From positions 736,001-800,000 of the forward strand of contig CBDCRW010000006.1 of NCBI GenBank assembly GCA_965221125.1: DNA of 64,000 bases, written 5' to 3'. Of the stretch, positions 3,618-51,986 are shown piece after piece. The notes under the pieces were generated by a model, which saw only the letters and a program-made list of their open reading frames with translations, was not told the DNA's origin and made no database searches. This DNA is from Alphaproteobacteria bacterium (GTDB lineage Bacteria; Pseudomonadota; Alphaproteobacteria; UBA828). The translations under genes were made by a program, and so were the position numbers. Position 1 is the first letter of the stretch. Each line of letters begins with the position of its first letter.

Positions 3618-4949
3618 TCAAATCGGCTGGCGGCTGGCGACCTTCTCGCCCCTGACGTAGACCGCCCCCACGGCGCGGTCGTCGCCCAGCATCATCAGCG
3701 AGAACAGCACGTCCTCCAGGGTCTCCGACAGCTCCTGGCGGGCGGCCAGCACCGGCGTCGCCTGCGGGTCGAGGACGACGACATCGGCCCAGCGGCCGGC
3801 ATCGAGCGTGCCAATCTCGCCATCGAGGCGGAGGCCGCGCGCGTTGCCGAGCGTGGCGAGGTAGAAGCCGTCGAAGGCGCTGAAGCGACAGCCCTTGAGC
3901 CGGGCGATCTTGTAGGCCTCGGCGAGGGTCTGGAGCAGGGAGTAGCTGGTGCCGCCGCCAACGTCCGTGGAGACGCCGACCCTGACCGGGCGCCGGGCCG
4001 CATACAGATGCTCGATGTCGAACAGGCCCGAGCCCAGGAACGCGTTCGACGTGGGGCAGTGGACGACCATCGAGCCCGCCTCGTGCAGGGCCCGGCATTC
4101 GCGCTCCGAGAGGTAGGTGCCGTGGGCGAAGACGGAGGTCTCGCCGACGAGGCCGAAGCGCGCGTAGACGTCGGTGTAATCCCTGGACCAGGGGAAGAGC
4201 CGCTGCACCATCTCGATCTCCGCCACGCTCTCCGAGAGGTGCGTGTGGAGGATGCAGTCGGGATGGTCCGCGAGCAGCGCGCCAGCGAGCCTGAGTTGCT
4301 CCTCGCTCGACGTGATGGCGAAGCGCACCGTGAGCGCGTAGCGCAGGCGGTCCACCCCGTGCCAGGACGCGATGAGTTCCGCGCTCTCCCGCGCGCTCTC
4401 TTCCGCCTCCTGGGTCACGGCGGCAGGCGCGTTCCGGTCCATCATGGTCGCCCCGGTCGCGAGGCAAAGGCCGCGCCGCCGAGCGGCGCGAAAGAGGCAG
4501 TCGGCCGCCTGCCCGTGCACCGACGAGAAGACCAGGGCGCTGGTGGTGCCGTGGCTCACCAGCTTGTCGAGGAAGCGCTCGGCGGCGGCGGCGGCGTGGT
4601 CCTCGGCGGCATAGCGCGCCTCCTCGGGGAAGGCGAAGCGATCCAGCCATTCGAGCAGGTCGTGCGCGGGCGCCGCCAGCATGCGGTGCTGCGGGAAGTG
4701 AACGTGCGCGTCGATGAAGCCGGGCAGGATGACCGCGTCGCCGTAGCGCTCGCAGGGTGCTGCGGCATGCGCCTGCGGCAGGTCGGCGAAGGCGCCGTGC
4801 CAGAGGATGCGGCCCTCCGAGCCCACGACCACCGCACCGTCGTCGTGGCTGCACACTGCCTGCTCGGGACCGACGGCGCGGGGGTCGTCCCCAAAGCTCA
4901 CCGTGCGGCCGCGCAGCACCCGCGCTGCAGAGGTGGCGCCTGCCGTCAT
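3618..4949 (-). CDS. guaD: Guanine deaminase
   Basis: PGFIDAHVHFPQ, RFAITS, HTHLSE, HCPTSNAFLGSG, TDVGGGTS. Confidence 0.95.
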   Translation of the reverse strand: MTAGATSAARVLRGRTVSFGDDPRAVGPEQAVCSHDDGAVVVGSEGRILWHGAFADLPQAHAAAPCERYGDAVILPGFIDAHVHFPQHRMLAAPAHDLLEWLDRFAFPEEARYAAEDHAAAAAERFLDKLVSHGTTSALVFSSVHGQAADCLFRAARRRGLCLATGATMMDRNAPAAVTQEAEESARESAELIASWHGVDRLRYALTVRFAITSSEEQLRLAGALLADHPDCILHTHLSESVAEIEMVQRLFPWSRDYTDVYARFGLVGETSVFAHGTYLSERECRALHEAGSMVVHCPTSNAFLGSGLFDIEHLYAARRPVRVGVSTDVGGGTSYSLLQTLAEAYKIARLKGCRFSAFDGFYLATLGNARGLRLDGEIGTLDAGRWADVVVLDPQATPVLAARQELSETLEDVLFSLMMLGDDRAVGAVYVRGEKVASRQPI

Positions 4950-9922: not shown

Positions 9923-11508
<1,586 letters not shown>

Positions 11509-45326: not shown

Positions 45327-47097
45327 TACCAATACAGTTGGGTTGGTGCCGCCTGTTGGCTCCGGTCGCAGCAACCCAAGACTCGGGCGAGACGCCCACC
45401 GACTCGGCCGTGATGGCCTCCCCCTTCAACGCAACAAGGGAGGCCTCCGGCCGTGACCCCTGCACAAAGGAGACTTCGCGAATTGCGCGAGCGCCAATCG
45501 CGCGAGCGTGGCCGCATGGCCGAGCTTGGCATGGTCGATGCGCTGACCGACGAACAGCGCTCCGAACTCGACGCCATCGAAGCCGGCACGCCTGACCTGG
45601 AGCGCCAGATCAGGGCCGCCACCATCGCGGTCGATCAGGAAGATGCCGAGTAGCACACAGAGACCCGGACGCACGAGCCGGACGCCGAGCAGCGCGAGCG
45701 GATCGAACTGCGCAGCAAGGCGAGCCTGACCGAGTACCTGTTGGCGGCAGCACAAGGCCGGATGGTGGCCGGCGCGGAGGCGGAGCTACAGGCGGCTGCC
45801 GGCGTCAAAGGCATCCCCATTGAACTGTGGGACGTGCCAGAGACCCGTAACCGAGGCGACGGCCGCGAGACCCGTGCCATCACCGAGGCGCCCGGCACGG
45901 TCGGCGTCAACCTCGACCCCATCCGCCCCGCCGTCTTCGCCAACAGCATCGCGGCCCGGCTTGGCATCGACATGCCCAGGGTGGCAAGTGGCACCTATGC
46001 GACAGCGACCATCACCACGTCGCAGACTGCGGAGGCCAAGGCGAAGAGTGCTGCCATCGCCGCGACGGCGGGCGCCTTCACCCTCAGCACGGCGACGCCG
46101 AAGCGGGTGAGCGCGCGACTGGAACTCACGCTCGAGGACATCGCAGCCGTGGGGCAGGCCAACTTCGAGAGCATTCTCCGCGAGAACCTGTCGCTCGCGT
46201 TGTCCGATGAACTGGACGATCAGGCGATCAACGGCGCTGGCCAGAACAATGATCTCAACGGAATGTTCAAGGCGCTCACCGACCCGTCCGCACCGGCGGC
46301 GGGGGTGGCGAGCTTCGACACCTTCGTTGCCGCTTTCGCGGGTGGTATCGACGGTCTTTGGGCGAACACCGTCGGCGATGTGGCCATCGTCGCGGGGGTG
46401 GATACCTACCAGCTGTCTGCGAAGGTGTTCCGAGATGTGGGCACGAACAACGGCCATCGCGGCGACATCAGCTTTGCCGACTACGCCAAGGAACACTTCG
46501 GCGGCTTCTGGACGAATAAGAGGATGCCGGCGAAGGCGAACCATATCCAGCAGGCCATCCTGTACCGGAAGGGCCGGTCCATGATGGGCGGGGGCGGGGC
46601 GATGCGCACCGCCGTTTGCCCGCATTGGGGCGAGGTGTCCATTGATGACATCTACAGCGGCTCCGCGAAGGCGGAGCGCTACGTGACCATGCTGTTGTTT
46701 CGCACGTTATTTGACGCCGAATCTCCCAGATTATTTGACGTGATCGCTGCCCTGATTTCCCAGATTGCTCGGTCTTTTCCGGATCGAAGCGTAGGAGCTC
46801 ATGGTCTCTGCGGGCGGTCCGGGGTCGCTGTCTGATTGAGGTTTGGACTGGTGCTTGAGGAGAGCTGACGAGGTGTCGCGCGGCCGTCGGCGCGTCAAGC
46901 GGCTGCGCCGCTCCTGCGCTTCGCTTCGGCCCTTCGGGTGACTCGCCACCGTCCACACGACGAAGTGCTGCCATGGCCTGAAGCAAGCTTCCGGCCACGG
47001 ACTGGCCGCTCACCTGACGTAGTATCCCGGTGGAGGCGCAGCGCCTTCCGGACCGTTGGGGAAGGGTGGTTCCCGACGGCGGTTCCGGCTCGAACCC

Positions 47098-48138
47098 CTA
47101 GGCGTTGGCGGAACCGGGCTCCGGGAACCGCGGGGCCTGCGGCCGACTGCTGCCGTTGGCGGCGGCGGCCGCCGCCCGCTTGTCCGCTGCGCCTGCGACG
47201 ACGCTGTAGCCGCCCTCGGCGTTGCGCGCGACGCGACCCTCCTGGACGAGCTTTTGCAAGATTACGCCGACGGTCTTGTGCCGGGTCGCGGCGCGTTCCC
47301 GGATCTGGCGTTGCGAGAGCGGCGCCCCGGCGTCGGCGAGCGCCTTGAGAACGCGGCATTCGGGTGTTTCGGGCTGAGGCGCCCCGCCGCCGGCCGTGGG
47401 CGGCTGGCGCAGCCGGAAGGAGGGCTCCTCTCCGTCTTCCTTGAGCTCGATCTCGATGTCGTCGAGACCGCGTGCGGCGCGATGCTCGACGGTCATGAGG
47501 GTCTGCCGGTCCCGGCGGCGCAGGTAGAGGTTCGAGTCCCCCCAGGCGTGCAGCTCACTGCTGCCCCGCAGGGCCTGCCCCGGCCTCGTGGCCCCGCTCT
47601 TGCGGGCGTGGTGGACGAGGAGGACGGCGGTCTCGAAGCGGCGTTGCAGGTCGCGCAGGAAGCCGAGGATCGGGGCGACGTCCGCAACCGTGTTCTCGTC
47701 CACGCCGTGCAGGCGGACCAGGGGGTCGAGGACCACGAGGCGCGGTGCGATGCGCTCCACGGTCTGCTGCAGGCGGCGGCGGTCGTCGAGATGGTCGAGG
47801 CGCAGTGTGGGCACGTCGATGACGGCGATGTCGAGGGTCTCGAAGCGGGCGCCTGCGGCGCGGGCGATCCCCTGCAGGCGCTTGCGCACGAGGTGGCCGG
47901 CGTCTTCTGCGGCGAACAGCAGGACCGGGCCAGGCCGGGCCGGGGCGAAGTGCCGCAGGCATGGGACGCCGGCGGCGACTGCGACCGCGAGGTCCAGCGC
48001 CAGGATGGACTTGCCGCACTTCGGCTCGCCGCCGACGATGCCGACGGCCTGCTCGCCCCATAGCGTGTCCACCAGCCATTGCTGCTCGCGCGGCCGCTCC
48101 TCCAGCTCGATCGGGGCGCGGGTCGGGAAGCCGGTCAT
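47098..48138 (-). CDS. AAA_25 (RepA/RecA-like) ATPase with C-terminal winged-helix-like region
   Basis: WLVDTLW, GGEPKCGKS, AAED, LVVLDPL, LLVHHARK, LRGSS; ATGA overlap with the ExeA-like gene. Confidence 0.85.
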   Translation of the reverse strand: MTGFPTRAPIELEERPREQQWLVDTLWGEQAVGIVGGEPKCGKSILALDLAVAVAAGVPCLRHFAPARPGPVLLFAAEDAGHLVRKRLQGIARAAGARFETLDIAVIDVPTLRLDHLDDRRRLQQTVERIAPRLVVLDPLVRLHGVDENTVADVAPILGFLRDLQRRFETAVLLVHHARKSGATRPGQALRGSSELHAWGDSNLYLRRRDRQTLMTVEHRAARGLDDIEIELKEDGEEPSFRLRQPPTAGGGAPQPETPECRVLKALADAGAPLSQRQIRERAATRHKTVGVILQKLVQEGRVARNAEGGYSVVAGAADKRAAAAAANGSSRPQAPRFPEPGSANA

Positions 48139-48935
48139 GGCCGCAGTTCCTCGAGCGCGTGCTGCAGGTGGTCGGCACTGACGGTCCTCGCCTCGTCGAG
48201 AGCGGCGGCGGAGAGCGCGTAGTGGGCGATGCGGTTGATCTGGCGCGGCAGGCCGCGCGCGCCCTGGAACAGGGCCTCGACGGCGGGCTCTTCGAACAGC
48301 GGCAGTTCGCATCCCGCGAGCCTGAGGCGGTGCTTGATGTAAGCGTCGACCTCGTCGCGGTCGAGACCGCTCAGGTGGTGGCGGACGACGAGGCGCTGGC
48401 TGAGGGATTCGTGCATGGCCATGGCCAGGCGGCGCCTGAGCTCGGTCAGACCGACGAGGACGAGGCACAGGCGCTGCTCTGCATCCATGGCGAAGTTGGT
48501 GAGCAGGCGCAGGTCCTCAAGGACGTCGTTGCGCAGATGATGGGCCTCGTCGATGACGAGGACCGGCAGCTGCTTGGCCTCGGTGACGAGGCGGGAGATC
48601 TCGTTTCGGATGGCCTGATAGGCCGAGGCGCGGGAGCGCTCGATGGGCAGGCCGATCTCCCACGCGATCGCCTTGTACATGTCGAGCACGTTGCCCGTGG
48701 TCAGCGAGACGTAGTGGACCCGGTAGAGGCCTGGATGAAGCTGCGCGGTCAGATGCCGGCACACGGTGGTCTTGCCGGAGCCCACCTCGCCGGTGAGCAG
48801 GCCGATGCCGCGCAGGTCGATGAGGTGGCCGAGCCTGGCCTCGGCCTCGCGGCGCGCGTTGGACTCGAACAGCTCGTCGGTCTCTGCCGGGGTCTCGAAG
48901 GGCAGGCGGGTGAAGGCGAAGTGGCGCAGGTACAT
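48135..48935 (-). CDS. ExeA/GspA-like AAA ATPase (transposition regulator)
   Basis: YLRHFAFTRLPF, TGEVGSGKTT, LVIDEAH, GLPRQIN. Confidence 0.9.
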   Translation of the reverse strand: MYLRHFAFTRLPFETPAETDELFESNARREAEARLGHLIDLRGIGLLTGEVGSGKTTVCRHLTAQLHPGLYRVHYVSLTTGNVLDMYKAIAWEIGLPIERSRASAYQAIRNEISRLVTEAKQLPVLVIDEAHHLRNDVLEDLRLLTNFAMDAEQRLCLVLVGLTELRRRLAMAMHESLSQRLVVRHHLSGLDRDEVDAYIKHRLRLAGCELPLFEEPAVEALFQGARGLPRQINRIAHYALSAAALDEARTVSADHLQHALEELRP

Positions 48936-50263
48936 CACTCGTCCTCCTTCTTGTCCTTGAGGTTGCGCATGGCCAGCGGCGAGGGCGGAGGCTCGGGCGC
49001 CGGATCTTCGGCCTCGATCTCCCTGGCCGGGTAGGTGCGCCTGACGGCGGTATTGGCGTAGGCGTCGAGAGGGCTGGCCTTGCCGGCCGGCTTGCCGTCA
49101 TGGACCACGTCGAGAGGGCGCGAGGGCGGCGCGGCCGGGTCGTAGCGCAGGATGACGTTCTGACCCACCAGGAGGGCGTCGACCTCGTAGACGCGGCCGT
49201 TCAGACTAACGGTGCGGTCCTTGTAGACACGGCGCCTGGCCTCGAAGAGGAACAGATCGTCGAGGTCCATGGTGGCGTCGGGATAGCGCACGCCGGCCGA
49301 GGCCAGCGCCCACTGCTCAAGCGGGGTGCGCCCCTCGTCGAGGCCACGATGCGGGCTGTTGTGATACTCCCCCTCGATCCAGGCCCAGAGGCTGCGGTTG
49401 AGCGCCTCCAGGCTGTCGACGTCATCGCCGAGGTGGCGGAGCCAGCCGGCCCGGAGGGTGCGGAAGAAGCGCTCGATCTTACCCTTTCCCGCTGGCTGGA
49501 ACGCCCTTGCGTGAATCAACGCAACGCCGAGCCTGGCGCAGACCAGGGAGAGATGACGGGAGCGGTAGGCGCTTCCGTTGTCGACGTACAAGCGGGCCGG
49601 GAGGCCGCGCCGGATCAGCGCGTCCTTGAACACCGGCAGGAACGCCGCAGTGTTCTCCGCCATGGCGAAGGCGGCGAACGGGATGACGCGGGTGGCGTCG
49701 TCGATGAAGGCGATCAGGTAGGTCTTGCGCCGGGTTCGGCCGTGCCGGACCTTGGGTCCGTGCATGACGTCGCTCATCCACATCTCGCCGGCATGCCGGA
49801 AGGCGAAGCGGCGGCGATCCGCCCCGTCGGGCGGCTTCTTGTCGAACAGGCCCTCGCGGCTGAAGAGGCGGTGCACGGTGGACGAGGCGAGCGGGTGGTC
49901 GATACCCTCCTCCTTGACCTTCTGGATGATGGCGCGAACCGACAATGCGTCGTTCTCGGTCTTCAGCGCGATGAGGCGCTCGGCGACCTCGGGCGGCAGC
50001 CGCCGGGGCTTCCCCCGGTCGGTGCGGGGCTTGGGGTAGAGCGCGTCGAAGCCGCCGTAGCGGTAGTCCTTGATCCAGCGCCGCATGGTCTCGGCGGCGA
50101 CCCGGGTCCTGGTGGTTCCGGGGATCGTGTAGGTCTTCTCGGCTTTGGCGCGCATCATCGCGCCGGCACCCGGTGCACCCACGGGCAGATGCACCAGATC
50201 GGCGATGACGTCGTATCGGAAGAGCGCGATCTGTTGGCGAAGGTCGTCGTCTGAGCTGTTCAT
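48935..50263 (-). CDS. DDE transposase (rve core, Mu-type C-terminus)
   Basis: WMSD, FIDDATR, LYVDNGSAY, GKGKIERFF, RRVYKDRTVSLNG. Confidence 0.92.
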   Translation of the reverse strand: MNSSDDDLRQQIALFRYDVIADLVHLPVGAPGAGAMMRAKAEKTYTIPGTTRTRVAAETMRRWIKDYRYGGFDALYPKPRTDRGKPRRLPPEVAERLIALKTENDALSVRAIIQKVKEEGIDHPLASSTVHRLFSREGLFDKKPPDGADRRRFAFRHAGEMWMSDVMHGPKVRHGRTRRKTYLIAFIDDATRVIPFAAFAMAENTAAFLPVFKDALIRRGLPARLYVDNGSAYRSRHLSLVCARLGVALIHARAFQPAGKGKIERFFRTLRAGWLRHLGDDVDSLEALNRSLWAWIEGEYHNSPHRGLDEGRTPLEQWALASAGVRYPDATMDLDDLFLFEARRRVYKDRTVSLNGRVYEVDALLVGQNVILRYDPAAPPSRPLDVVHDGKPAGKASPLDAYANTAVRRTYPAREIEAEDPAPEPPPSPLAMRNLKDKKEDE

Positions 50264-50308
50264 GGTGCGATCCTCGTTCAGGGACTCCCTGGCCCCGGGA
50301 TCGTCACG

Positions 50309-50944
50309 CTACGAACTCTCCGGCGGCGGGTCCGGCCCCGCCCGTTGTTGGAACTGCGGTTTGCGATTCCCCACGTCGATGCCGTGGGGTTGGAAGCCCA
50401 GAGGCGCGGGTAGCGTCCGGAGCTGCCCGGCGACCAGGCCGCGCAGTTCCATCAACGCGCTGTCGCTCTTCAGACGCTCGCGCACCGCGCTCATGGTGGG
50501 CGCGCAGCCCGCGAGCAGGTCGGGGATCAGGCCGATGACGCGCACAAGCGCGTCGTGCACAAGCTTCAGCCTGCGGCGGATCCAACGCACGGCGCCGGGA
50601 AGCTCGATGGCGTCCTCGTCCTCGGGGCAGCGCACCTCGTCCGCTGCCTCCTCCAGGCTGCCGGCCTCCTCCGCCACGACAACAACCGCTTCCAGCGCAT
50701 CGAGCGTGCCCGGCAGCCGCGCCGCCAGACAGTCGGCCAGCAGGCCGATGGTCGTATGGCTCTCACGGCAATACCAGCGAGGAACCCTTGCGCCGGGCGG
50801 GGTCTTCCGCTCGTAGGTGCCGTGGCTTGCCACAGAACATCCGCCGTGCGGGTGATTCGGGCAGCGCTCAAGCCTTGCGTCGCGCCACGCCTCGGTCTTA
50901 ACGTATTCCTCGCTGGTGAGCCCCGTTTCGTAGCGAAGCTGCAC
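50309..50944 (-). CDS. First ORF of the transposon, Cys/His putative Zn-binding protein
   Basis: CPNH...C..HGTYER...RWYC...T..LL.DCL..R; resembles DUF6431-like leaders by inference. Confidence 0.65.
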   Translation of the reverse strand: MQLRYETGLTSEEYVKTEAWRDARLERCPNHPHGGCSVASHGTYERKTPPGARVPRWYCRESHTTIGLLADCLAARLPGTLDALEAVVVVAEEAGSLEEAADEVRCPEDEDAIELPGAVRWIRRRLKLVHDALVRVIGLIPDLLAGCAPTMSAVRERLKSDSALMELRGLVAGQLRTLPAPLGFQPHGIDVGNRKPQFQQRAGPDPPPESS

Positions 50945-51033
50945 CGGCCCTGGCCCGGCGGGAGTTCCGTCCCCCGGGCCTCTCTTTGTCGTTCAGTGAG
51001 AGGCCAAGATTACGGACGCTCCCCGCCGCCGCC

Positions 51034-51167
51034 AAGCTGTGGAGCCGTGGACGCGTCCTGCGGACCGATCGGCGTCCTGCGGACCGTGTGGACAGCCCGT
51101 GGACAAGCTGGCGCTTGCCCACCGCCTGACCACACTCGCCGATCTCGCGCCCACCGCTCCACAGCTT
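51034..51167. other. Long nested hairpin in the transposon leader
   Basis: AAGCTGTGGAGC/GCTCCACAGCTT, GTGGACGCG/CGCGCCCAC, GTGTGGACAG/CTGACCACAC, GTGGACAAGC/GCTTGCCCAC. Confidence 0.7.
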
Positions 51168-51413
51168 CAACAGCAATGAGGATTCTGCTGAGGATCAAAA
51201 AAATGCCGCAGGCAGCGTCCTTCCCGCACTCGGCCACCATCCCGGGAAATCCACCAACCAATCAAAGTGAGAAAAAAACCCGTGCTTCTATCCGGCTAGA
51301 CCGGAAAACAACACATGCACGTCTTACTTGGTGACGTGATCCTCGTTCAGCCCGACGCCTACGCCCAGGTGGCATTCCGCGTCTCGACCTAAGCGGGCGC
51401 CCAGGGGGCGACC

Positions 51414-51986
51414 ATGGCCGAGTATCCGATCTTCGACGGGGCGCTGGAGCTGCGGCGCTCCGGAGGCGCCCGCACGCTCCACGGCCGTTTCAACTACGGC
51501 AGCACGGCGACTACCCGTGACCGGGGCCGAGTGCGGAAGGAGCGGTTTCAACCCCGCGCCTTTCGCTACGCCATCGACCAGGATCCAGAGCGACGCGTCG
51601 ACCTTCTGGTCGGACACGACTACGGGAAGCCGCTCGCGAGCCGGCAGGCGGGCACGCTCGACATCGCTGACGGCGACGACGCGGTGACGTTCACGGCGCG
51701 CCTGCCCGAAGACCCGCCGACATGGGTCCGCGATGCCGAGCTTGCCATCGCAGCCGGCTTGATGGTTGGGCTTAGCCCCGGCTTCACCGTGCCGCCGACA
51801 TCGGTGGTGCCGGACGCGGAGGTGCTTGAGGACGAGCCGGGCAACCCCGGCGTCCAGGTGCGCGTCATTCGCGAGGCGGTGCTGCGAGAGTTCAGCGTGG
51901 TGACATCGCCCGCCTACACGGACGCGGCGGTCGACATCCGGTCGGACCTTCTCACACCCCCTCGGAGGCGCCGGCTATGGCTGTAG
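51414..51986 (+). CDS. HK97-type prohead protease
   Basis: ERFQPRAF, LLVGHD, GLSPGF, LREFSVVTSPAY. Confidence 0.9.
   Translation: MAEYPIFDGALELRRSGGARTLHGRFNYGSTATTRDRGRVRKERFQPRAFRYAIDQDPERRVDLLVGHDYGKPLASRQAGTLDIADGDDAVTFTARLPEDPPTWVRDAELAIAAGLMVGLSPGFTVPPTSVVPDAEVLEDEPGNPGVQVRVIREAVLREFSVVTSPAYTDAAVDIRSDLLTPPRRRRLWL

Follow-up and report, generated by a model that had tools for sequence, protein, structure and literature searches.

The stretch of DNA analysed here (64,000 nucleotides, hereafter the window; positions 736,001 to 800,000 of the forward strand of contig CBDCRW010000006.1, assembly GCA_965221125.1, from an alphaproteobacterium of the UBA828 lineage) contains a transposon of 4,621 bp at window positions 46693-51313, whose four co-oriented minus-strand genes encode, in order, a Cys/His protein (X), a DDE transposase (A), an AAA+ ATPase (B) and a helicase-like ATPase (H). 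It is almost certain that this element is a transposon of the Mu kind built on a core cassette X-A-B, and that it is chimeric (that is, its fourth gene came from a second transposon family with the gene order X'-A'-B'-H). By analogy with known replication proteins, we further suggest, with confidence about evenly divided, that H may be an element-encoded replication helper maintained as an accessory of the transposition machinery. The features of the element and its flanks are as follows.

46688-46692, no strand: left copy of the target duplication, CATGC; the same 5 bp stand at 51314-51318
46693-46787, minus strand: helicase-side end, with terminal TGTTGTTT and subterminal direct repeats; an end sequence of the X-A-B family
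46857-47000, minus strand: conserved non-coding segment beside H, predicted to form one hairpin and a long branched helix
47098-48138, minus strand: H, a 346-amino-acid (aa) AAA_25 protein with a predicted RSF1010-RepA-like helicase core (residues ~11-225) and a C-terminal winged helix (~259-313)
48135-48935, minus strand: B, a 266-aa AAA+ ATPase (AAA_22, ExeA/MuB-like), its start placed at the ATG at 48935 that relatives use
48935-50263, minus strand: A, a 442-aa DDE transposase with HTH_32, an rve core and a Mu transposase C-terminal domain
50309-50944, minus strand: X, a 211-aa Cys/His protein whose divergent DUF6431-type zinc ribbon precedes a helical domain
50945-51313, minus strand: X-side end, a non-coding leader of 369 bp with terminal AAACAACA at 51306-51313
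51314-51318, no strand: right copy of the target duplication, CATGC, read in the sequence

A recently active element with a three-gene core

The element opens with TGTTGTTT at 46693 and closes with AAACAACA at 51313. It is present in 20 copies in the genome of the window (4.58 Mb in 7 contigs, 92% complete), all of them 100% identical; 17 are uninterrupted, measure 4,621 bp and agree from first to last base, which fixes the boundaries that the initial annotation had drawn from the inverted TGT...ACA ends and the CATGC duplication, and the remaining three are interrupted by an insertion sequence (IS) of 1,453 bp. A perfect 5-bp target duplication flanks 15 of the 20 copies and a 4-bp match only is found at three, whereas two copies (C4:671960-676580, plus strand, and C4:716887-721507, minus strand) carry each other's flanks (GAGGG/CCCCG). 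This exchange indicates that the ~40 kb between these two inverted copies on contig 4 was inverted, either by recombination between them or by one intramolecular replicative transposition event, as the flanks fit both. Given the complete identity of the 20 copies and the 15 perfect duplications, the element is recently active and its boundaries are exact. Contig depth in the likely source runs (~400 for the element and ~19 for its flanks) agrees with a copy number of about 20. The 23 sequencing runs were assessed as contigs only, and among the contigs aligned to the element there was no end-to-end (circle) junction, although contigs cannot rule circles out.

The TG...CA ends and the 5-bp duplication are those expected of Mu-kind transposons. 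Subterminal repeats, also noted in the initial annotation, are present at the helicase-side end as two pairs: TTATTTGACG at 46707-46716 and 46731-46740, and T[CT]TCCCAGATT at 46722-46732 and 46756-46766. The latter pattern has 5 matches across the window against 4.4 expected, which is chance frequency, such that only its clustering at the end is notable. At the opposite end, the leader holds a 22-nucleotide inverted repeat (51034-51055 and 51146-51167). A simple scan found no sigma-70 consensus promoter; contigs from one metatranscriptome run span 50702-51319, which is not proof of transcription, and the small shares of the element in four RNA runs are likewise not evidence of it. Rfam returned only two chance-level matches to the element, and no further open reading frames (ORFs) of note lie within it.

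Target choice was assessed on 39 duplications (17 from the genome of the window and 22 from other genomes). C or T occupies position 2 in 26 of them, and G or A occupies position 4 in 30; 18 satisfy both, compared with 9.75 expected, and 21 of the 39 have A or T as their central base even though the genomes have ~69% G+C. This is a weak N-Y-N-R-N preference and not an attachment site; the target preference of Mu is likewise a weak N-Y-N-R-N. The 20 sites in the genome of the window are dispersed and share no common target, and relatives that lack H show the same bias as the H-bearing element. The insertion sites therefore show no sign of site-specific targeting or target selection, and the target-selection role that had been entertained for X and H is not borne out.

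The transposase A joins an RNase-H-fold DDE core to a Mu-type C-terminal domain: both rve (E = 1e-10) and Mu-transpos_C (E = 2e-7) pass the Pfam cut-off, and the translation shows SDV, VDNG and KIERFF as the D, D and E motifs. Its match among PHROG families is phrog_310, a transposase of transposable phages (E = 3e-49), and its best sequence match in the PDB is TnsB (E = 5e-7). Directly 3' of A, as is usual for the Mu kind, lies the gene for the AAA+ ATPase B, which matches AAA_22 (E = 6e-27, 95 bits) and, weakly, TniB, contains GSGKT and VIDEAH, and has phrog_296 ('DNA transposition protein', E = 1e-29) and MuB (8xvb, E = 0.001) as its PHROG match and best PDB sequence match, respectively; from these likenesses, B is presumed to be a target-DNA activator. 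The two genes overlap in TGATG, and B and H overlap in ATGA, as the initial annotation had read along with the common orientation of all four genes. Its likening of the element to Mu- and Tn5053-type systems, with no recognisable TniQ, resolvase or Cas, is upheld: the element is of the Mu/Tn552/Tn5053 kind, and Pfam and NCBIfam detect none of these three, nor TnsA, in the four element proteins.

X has no match of its own in Pfam or NCBIfam. In an alignment of 29 homologues, C28, C36, H41 and C59 are invariant or nearly so; the family profile aligns with DUF6431-type ORFs at 96.4% probability (E = 1.3e-9, 82 columns), and 28 of the 30 protein Atlas clusters nearest to X carry DUF6431 on part of their members. 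We therefore take X to be a divergent DUF6431 protein in which histidine replaces some of the cysteine ligands. An AlphaFold2 (AF2) model (predicted local distance difference test score (pLDDT) of 84.7) has an N-terminal sheet and a helical domain; a fold search of the PDB with this model found no solved relative (best E = 0.13), and the profile had no match among PDB sequences.

X, A and B recur together across bacteria. A scan of one genome per species gave 79 related loci, with transposases 98-37% identical to A, in Alpha- and Gammaproteobacteria, Spirochaetia, Bryobacterales, Verrucomicrobiae, Desulfobacterota, an Anoxybacillus and others. By tblastn, B was found in 76 of the 79 (the misses being contig ends) and X in 59. 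The 19 loci whose transposases are most distant (37-43%) were tblastn-negative for X; 15 of the 16 inspected among these have an upstream zinc-ribbon ORF with the pattern CPxC...HG...RYRCxxC, and the upstream ORF of the Anoxybacillus passes the Pfam DUF6431 cut-off (37.7 bits). RefSeq lists a DUF6431 domain-containing protein, a transposase and an AAA/ATP-binding protein in this order on Geobacillus pGeo12a and Cupriavidus pBB2. Where multi-copy genomes allowed the ends to be read, the family has TGTTG... termini and 5-bp duplications, and its three-gene form measures 3.3-3.5 kb. X-A-B is thus a widespread three-gene core cassette that recurs in many phyla, and the element of the window, with its zinc-ribbon DUF6431-type gene directly upstream of A and B, has this core. 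The Cys/His ORF is accordingly a core gene and not cargo, as had been surmised, and its universal presence and position suggest that X may either bridge A, B and DNA as an adaptor or act as a regulator.

Paper searches and RefSeq labels yielded no published description of X-A-B, of X'-A'-B'-H or of a helicase-bearing DDE transposon, and genome annotation gives the genes of these families generic labels only. We thus found both families to be undescribed in print, in line with the undescribed module that the initial annotation had suggested, although the kind of element is itself known. A 2026 preprint notes 15 copies of a DUF6431/DDE/AAA ATPase cassette in Clostridium sp. JS66 and treats them as recombination substrates (10.64898/2026.08.16.744336); another paper has DUF6431 in a gene table only.

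Several observations concern the surroundings of the element. The 1,453-bp IS encodes an IS256-type (mutator-like) transposase, makes 8-bp duplications and is present in 14 copies (including G000 C6:194952-196404); three of these lie inside the transposon near its ends (element positions ~58-65, 81-94 and 4443-4450), and several more lie within 0.5-1.5 kb of a transposon copy, the transposon being only ~2% of the genome. The copy in the window interrupts a Phage_capsid-family gene (45741-46692 and 51319-51392) 24 codons ahead of its stop, and the next gene (51414-51986) encodes a Peptidase_S78 prohead protease, which together place the insertion within a prophage or a gene-transfer-agent-like cluster. 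Finally, about half of the sampled words of the element are present in runs X5-X16 (marine and sponge metagenomes from four studies), and contigs from two of those runs are 1-10% divergent from it; close relatives thus live in those habitats.

Identity of H and its origin in a second transposon family

H matches AAA_25 (E = 9e-37) and, weakly, MarR_2, and its only solved relative by sequence is the RepA protein of plasmid RSF1010 (1g8y, E = 9.6e-10). The alignment keeps GKS, AED, VLD..H, HHA.K and RGSS, which we take to serve in H as Walker A, catalytic glutamate, Walker B, histidine sensor and arginine finger, respectively, and alignment and fold agree on a RecA-fold core that contains all five. 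The AF2 model (pLDDT 69.8) is of moderate quality overall and good in the core and winged helix; its best fold matches are RepA structures (1nlf, 1olo and 1g8y; template modelling score 0.63-0.66 on the target), followed by RadA, Rad51 paralogues, DnaB and KaiC. The initial impression of an extra helicase-like ATPase thus holds by sequence and by fold: as judged from the alignment and the model, H joins a winged helix to a hexameric-helicase core like that of RSF1010 RepA, and is predicted to form hexamers and to unwind DNA. One metagenome contig encodes a 597-aa protein (P0128) in which a B-type AAA_22 domain is fused to H, either a real fusion over the ATGA junction or a sequencing error.

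Across five H-bearing elements, the ratio of nonsynonymous to synonymous divergence (dN/dS) is 0.22-0.39 for H, 0.21-0.45 for A, 0.14-0.39 for B and 0.28-0.47 for X, and synonymous divergence (dS) is similar across the four genes, so that H has evolved alongside the other genes of the element at a comparable level of constraint. By these substitution patterns, H is evidently a maintained, functional gene and not loose cargo. The internal stop codons of H seen in three genomes are only apparent, being the natural stop a few residues earlier.

Within X-A-B elements, H occupies a variable fourth slot after B. Its contents in the 79 loci are as follows.

H: 8 of the 79 loci, in 6 genomes; transposase 77-98% identical
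ORF of 73 aa without a Pfam match: 8 loci
DUF3991 plus Toprim_2 protein of 280-300 aa: 14 loci, in 9 genomes
None of these three: 28 loci, among those with at least 1 kb downstream of B

In a transposase tree built with a quick method, the element of the window and loci L009, L010, L011 and L024 form a starred clade, H-bearing L013 groups weakly with bearers of the small ORF, and Toprim bearers lie towards the base. The 73-aa ORF (L012:9132-9353; also in L015, L016, L017/18/25 and L028/29) overlaps the stop of B in close relatives that lack H, and is 39-59% identical between lineages.

H has a larger home elsewhere. Among 40 related genomes searched, it occurred only in the genus of the window, where 8 of 20 further species searched had it and a single genome gave as many as 51 matches. 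In three genomes of the genus, sub-families of H that are 69-78% identical to that of the window follow a different transposase-ATPase pair, A'-B', whose members are 27-31% (A') and 27-30% (B') identical to A and B. One such element (L095:1505-6696, genome G013) measures 5,192 bp, has TGAGCG... ends and occurs in about 8 full and many partial copies; its gene order is X', A', B', H and a DUF3991-Toprim protein, the last without a solved relative by sequence. X' (205 aa) contains a Cys-rich motif and matches HTH_23 weakly; homology of X' to X or to DUF6431 was not supported (hhalign probabilities of 1.9% and 7.5%). In L090, the end of another element, which reads ...AACAACA, truncates a copy of this element.

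A metagenome scan with an alignment of H recovered 80 loci at 49-88% identity. A B-type gene lies directly upstream of H in 58 of the 62 loci with at least 900 bp upstream, and is nearest to B' in 56 of these and to B in only two, at only 29-33% identity; where there was enough DNA, an A-type transposase was present in 41 of 43 loci and X' in 33 of 39. Both families reach 20-51 copies per genome in the genus of the window and are seen in sponge, marine and soil metagenomes. They meet in one Spirochaetia locus (L029), in which a homologue of H (10212-11201, minus strand, 45% identical) is preceded by a B'-type gene and separated from an X-A-B element by ~1 kb.

Two lines of evidence point to a single import. 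In a quick-method tree that comprises 90 H sequences and for which no root was inferred, the nine from X-A-B elements form one starred clade (98), which nests within a starred clade of 13 rows together with four X'-A'-B' sequences, the other 77 rows being almost all X'-A'-B'. Of the 408 bp that follow H in the window, positions 101-244 are 84-88% identical to the DNA that follows H in X'-A'-B'-H elements, while the last 95 bp of the element on the helicase side are 74% identical, over 96 bp, to the end of an H-less relative (L012). Tree and downstream DNA together imply that H arrived once with its downstream DNA and was set between B and the original end. H is thus shown to have been imported, with ~250 bp of downstream DNA, from X'-A'-B'-H, in which it is a standard gene.

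This origin bears on the initial annotation in several ways. The proposal that the Cys/His ORF and the AAA_25 gene form one module fails, as X belongs to the core, H came from another transposon family, and the two are not one module. That the AAA_25 gene is more than passive cargo is sustained by its place behind a B-type ATPase (58 of 62), by the shared constraint and by the H tree. Co-occurrence of all four genes, proposed as a check, holds for X (59 of 79) and B (76 of 79) but not for H (8 of 79, in 6 genomes); relatives within the X-A-B family do mostly lack the AAA_25 gene, so that the point which had been named as telling against its coupling to transposition is partly borne out.

The DNA that moved with H contains the conserved non-coding segment 46857-47000, which is 83-91% identical in 10 H-bearing elements of both families and thus at least as conserved as the adjoining gene. 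In a consensus fold, 95.9% of its cells are paired (23-48% in slid controls); five pairs change on both sides, a number reached by 2 of 500 shuffles, and the changes extend over 10 such cells (0 of 500). Rfam has no match to the segment. We consider it a candidate structured RNA or single-stranded DNA element. A variant without 46884-46948 (65 bp, inside the long helix) occurs in contigs from one marine and one sponge metagenome and from a sponge metatranscriptome.

A possible role for H in replication

Given that most copies have intact duplications and that donors persist, the element probably copies itself. In the scheme that we envision, A would bind the terminal and subterminal repeats and pair the ends (as in Mu and Tn7), then nick the ends and join their 3' ends to target DNA 5 bp apart (as in Mu, Tn7 and IS21), while ATP-bound B, again on the model of these three, would mark or hold a target chosen almost independently of sequence, with only the weak N-Y-N-R-N bias. 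Copying could proceed by Mu-type strand transfer followed by replication, or by the copying out of a circle, in either case without a second-strand nuclease or resolvase; the intact duplications and the absence of a resolvase gene fit simple insertions made through a copying mechanism. Both routes would require DNA synthesis to start on an unusual substrate, and H may open the DNA and help to start synthesis at the strand-transfer fork or while the circle is copied out. The DUF3991-Toprim protein found in the same slot in other lineages would be a primase-like counterpart of H, and the conserved hairpin segment may act as a loading or priming site. The recurrence of Toprim in this slot (14 loci, 9 genomes) and the joint presence of H and Toprim in the 5,192-bp element favour a replicative function. 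We consider it probable that H serves the element rather than the host; that the service is replication we hold at somewhat below an even chance. A more elaborate version, in which transposons carry a small primosome (that is, H, sometimes Toprim, and the hairpin site) that assembles on the strand-transfer intermediate and starts the completing synthesis, is tentative, as is its corollary that the module would be exchangeable between transposon families and leave the element largely independent of host PriA-type restart.

Several points weigh against a replication helper. H is absent from 71 of the 79 X-A-B loci, and elements without it are multi-copy (3-6 per genome; for example, 6 loci in one gammaproteobacterial genome), such that H is dispensable for X-A-B transposition as such. 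The unrelated 73-aa ORF in the same slot (8 loci) fits a general cargo slot. Toprim adjoins H in none of the 21 metagenome loci with at least 1 kb downstream, and follows H in one lineage only. The single-sequence fold energy of the segment is ordinary (z = -0.73), and its structure was both derived from and judged on the same ten related sequences. Purifying selection on H shows that it has a function but not which one, and replication, circles and helicase activity of H are predictions from sequence and models. Copy number also speaks with reserve: among 12 species drawn from the genus, A is present in 67 copies in 6 genomes, 64 of which have an adjoining H (20, 30, 9, 4 and 1 in five genomes), while the three without H are single or double copies; this hints at a higher copy number of H-bearing forms, in a comparison that covers related, non-independent genomes.

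Of the other explanations, the one that survives best, although we regard it as rather unlikely, is that H is a regulator or target chooser: a RecA-fold ATPase whose winged helix would bind forks, ends or a promoter and steer or throttle transposition in the manner of TnsE, TniQ-type selectors or a repressor. The winged helix is indeed conserved, H lies directly 3' of the target-DNA ATPase gene and is translationally coupled to it, the family has no recognisable TniQ, and H-bearing forms reach the highest copy numbers in the genus. However, insertion sites are dispersed, with a bias that is the same in H-less relatives; all checked catalytic motifs of RepA are kept, which a mere DNA-binding regulator would not need; and in other elements a Toprim protein replaces H in the slot or accompanies it.

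It is improbable that H is passenger cargo in a permissive slot that collects genes useful to the host or to mobile elements and unrelated to transposition. The slot does vary (empty, 73-aa ORF, Toprim or H), most X-A-B relatives lack H, and H was gained by recombination. Yet 58 of 62 H homologues sit immediately downstream of a transposon's B-type ATPase gene, H has changed in step with A, B and X at comparable constraint, both recurrent large occupants of the slot are replication-type proteins, and PLSDB plasmids hold no close homologue of H (E <= 1e-30); moreover, a host-benefit gene would gain nothing from 20-51 copies, and at such redundancy selection for host benefit would act only weakly on any one copy.

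Least probable is that H lets an excised circle replicate temporarily as a small replicon, with the winged helix binding an origin-like site, the core opening it, the hairpin segment acting as a single-strand initiation site as in RSF1010, and more donor molecules as the result: the closest solved relative of H is a replicative helicase of RSF1010, a conserved structured segment moves with H, and IS481/IS3-related transposases use circular intermediates, but no circle junction was seen in contigs on the element (which cannot rule one out), genes for an initiator and a polymerase are absent, and the MuB-like ATPase and Mu C-terminal domain indicate Mu-type strand transfer.

If H is indeed a replication helper, the implications would extend beyond this element. 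Mu-kind transposons are thought to leave replication to the host, and a widespread group whose elements encode a helicase, joined in some cases by a primase-like protein, would alter this picture. The natural series of slots (empty, Toprim, H, or both) offers a means of asking how transposition intermediates recruit replication.

Comparison with known systems

A close likeness is to phage Mu and the B3/D3112-type phages, with which the element shares a DDE transposase with a Mu C-terminal domain, a MuB-like ATPase directly downstream, TG...CA ends, 5-bp duplications and the weak N-Y-N-R-N preference; the best PHROG families of A and B come from such phages. Unlike Mu, the element measures only 4.6 kb and has no phage genes, A (442 aa) lacks the large N-terminal domains of MuA, and an upstream zinc-ribbon gene and a helicase-like gene of its own are added, whereas Mu depends on host restart proteins. 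Tn552, Tn5053/Tn402 and Tn7-like elements similarly pair a transposase with an AAA+ regulator between TGT/ACA ends, and the nearest solved transposase of A is TnsB. However, no serine resolvase equivalent to BinL of Tn552 or TniR of Tn5053 is found among the four proteins, nor are the TnsA and TniQ/TnsD of Tn7-like elements, and the element does not target an att site. A tblastn search with A also matched 408 Staphylococcus plasmids at <60% identity, which are presumed to carry Tn552-type transposases.

Two IS families invite comparison. IS481 provides the best NCBIfam model for A, and RefSeq labels some homologues 'IS481 family transposase'; yet A scores 202 bits against a cut-off of 224 and thus falls outside that family, and IS481 elements are single-gene IS of ~1-1.3 kb, whereas the present element fits four genes into 4.6 kb. 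A DDE transposase next to an ATPase gene is likewise characteristic of IS21, but the IS21 transposase model scores 43 bits on A against a cut-off of 160, so that A is not of this family, and the 25 listed Pfam matches of B, which is AAA_22/MuB-like, do not include IstB_IS21.

The DUF6431/transposase/ATPase cassettes of pGeo12a, pBB2 and JS66 have the same three genes in the same order. Their records differ in having no fourth gene and in leaving the ends, duplication and family undefined, and the X of the window is too divergent for the Pfam DUF6431 model. For H, the relevant system is RSF1010, in which RepB' serves as primase and the ssi sites as single-strand initiation sites. H has the Walker A, AED, Walker B, HHA and RGSS motifs in common with RepA, which is also the best fold match of its model, and in some elements a primase-like Toprim partner and a hairpin-forming segment adjoin H, reminiscent of RepB' and ssi; unlike RepA, H adds a winged helix and sits in a transposon instead of the origin region of a plasmid.

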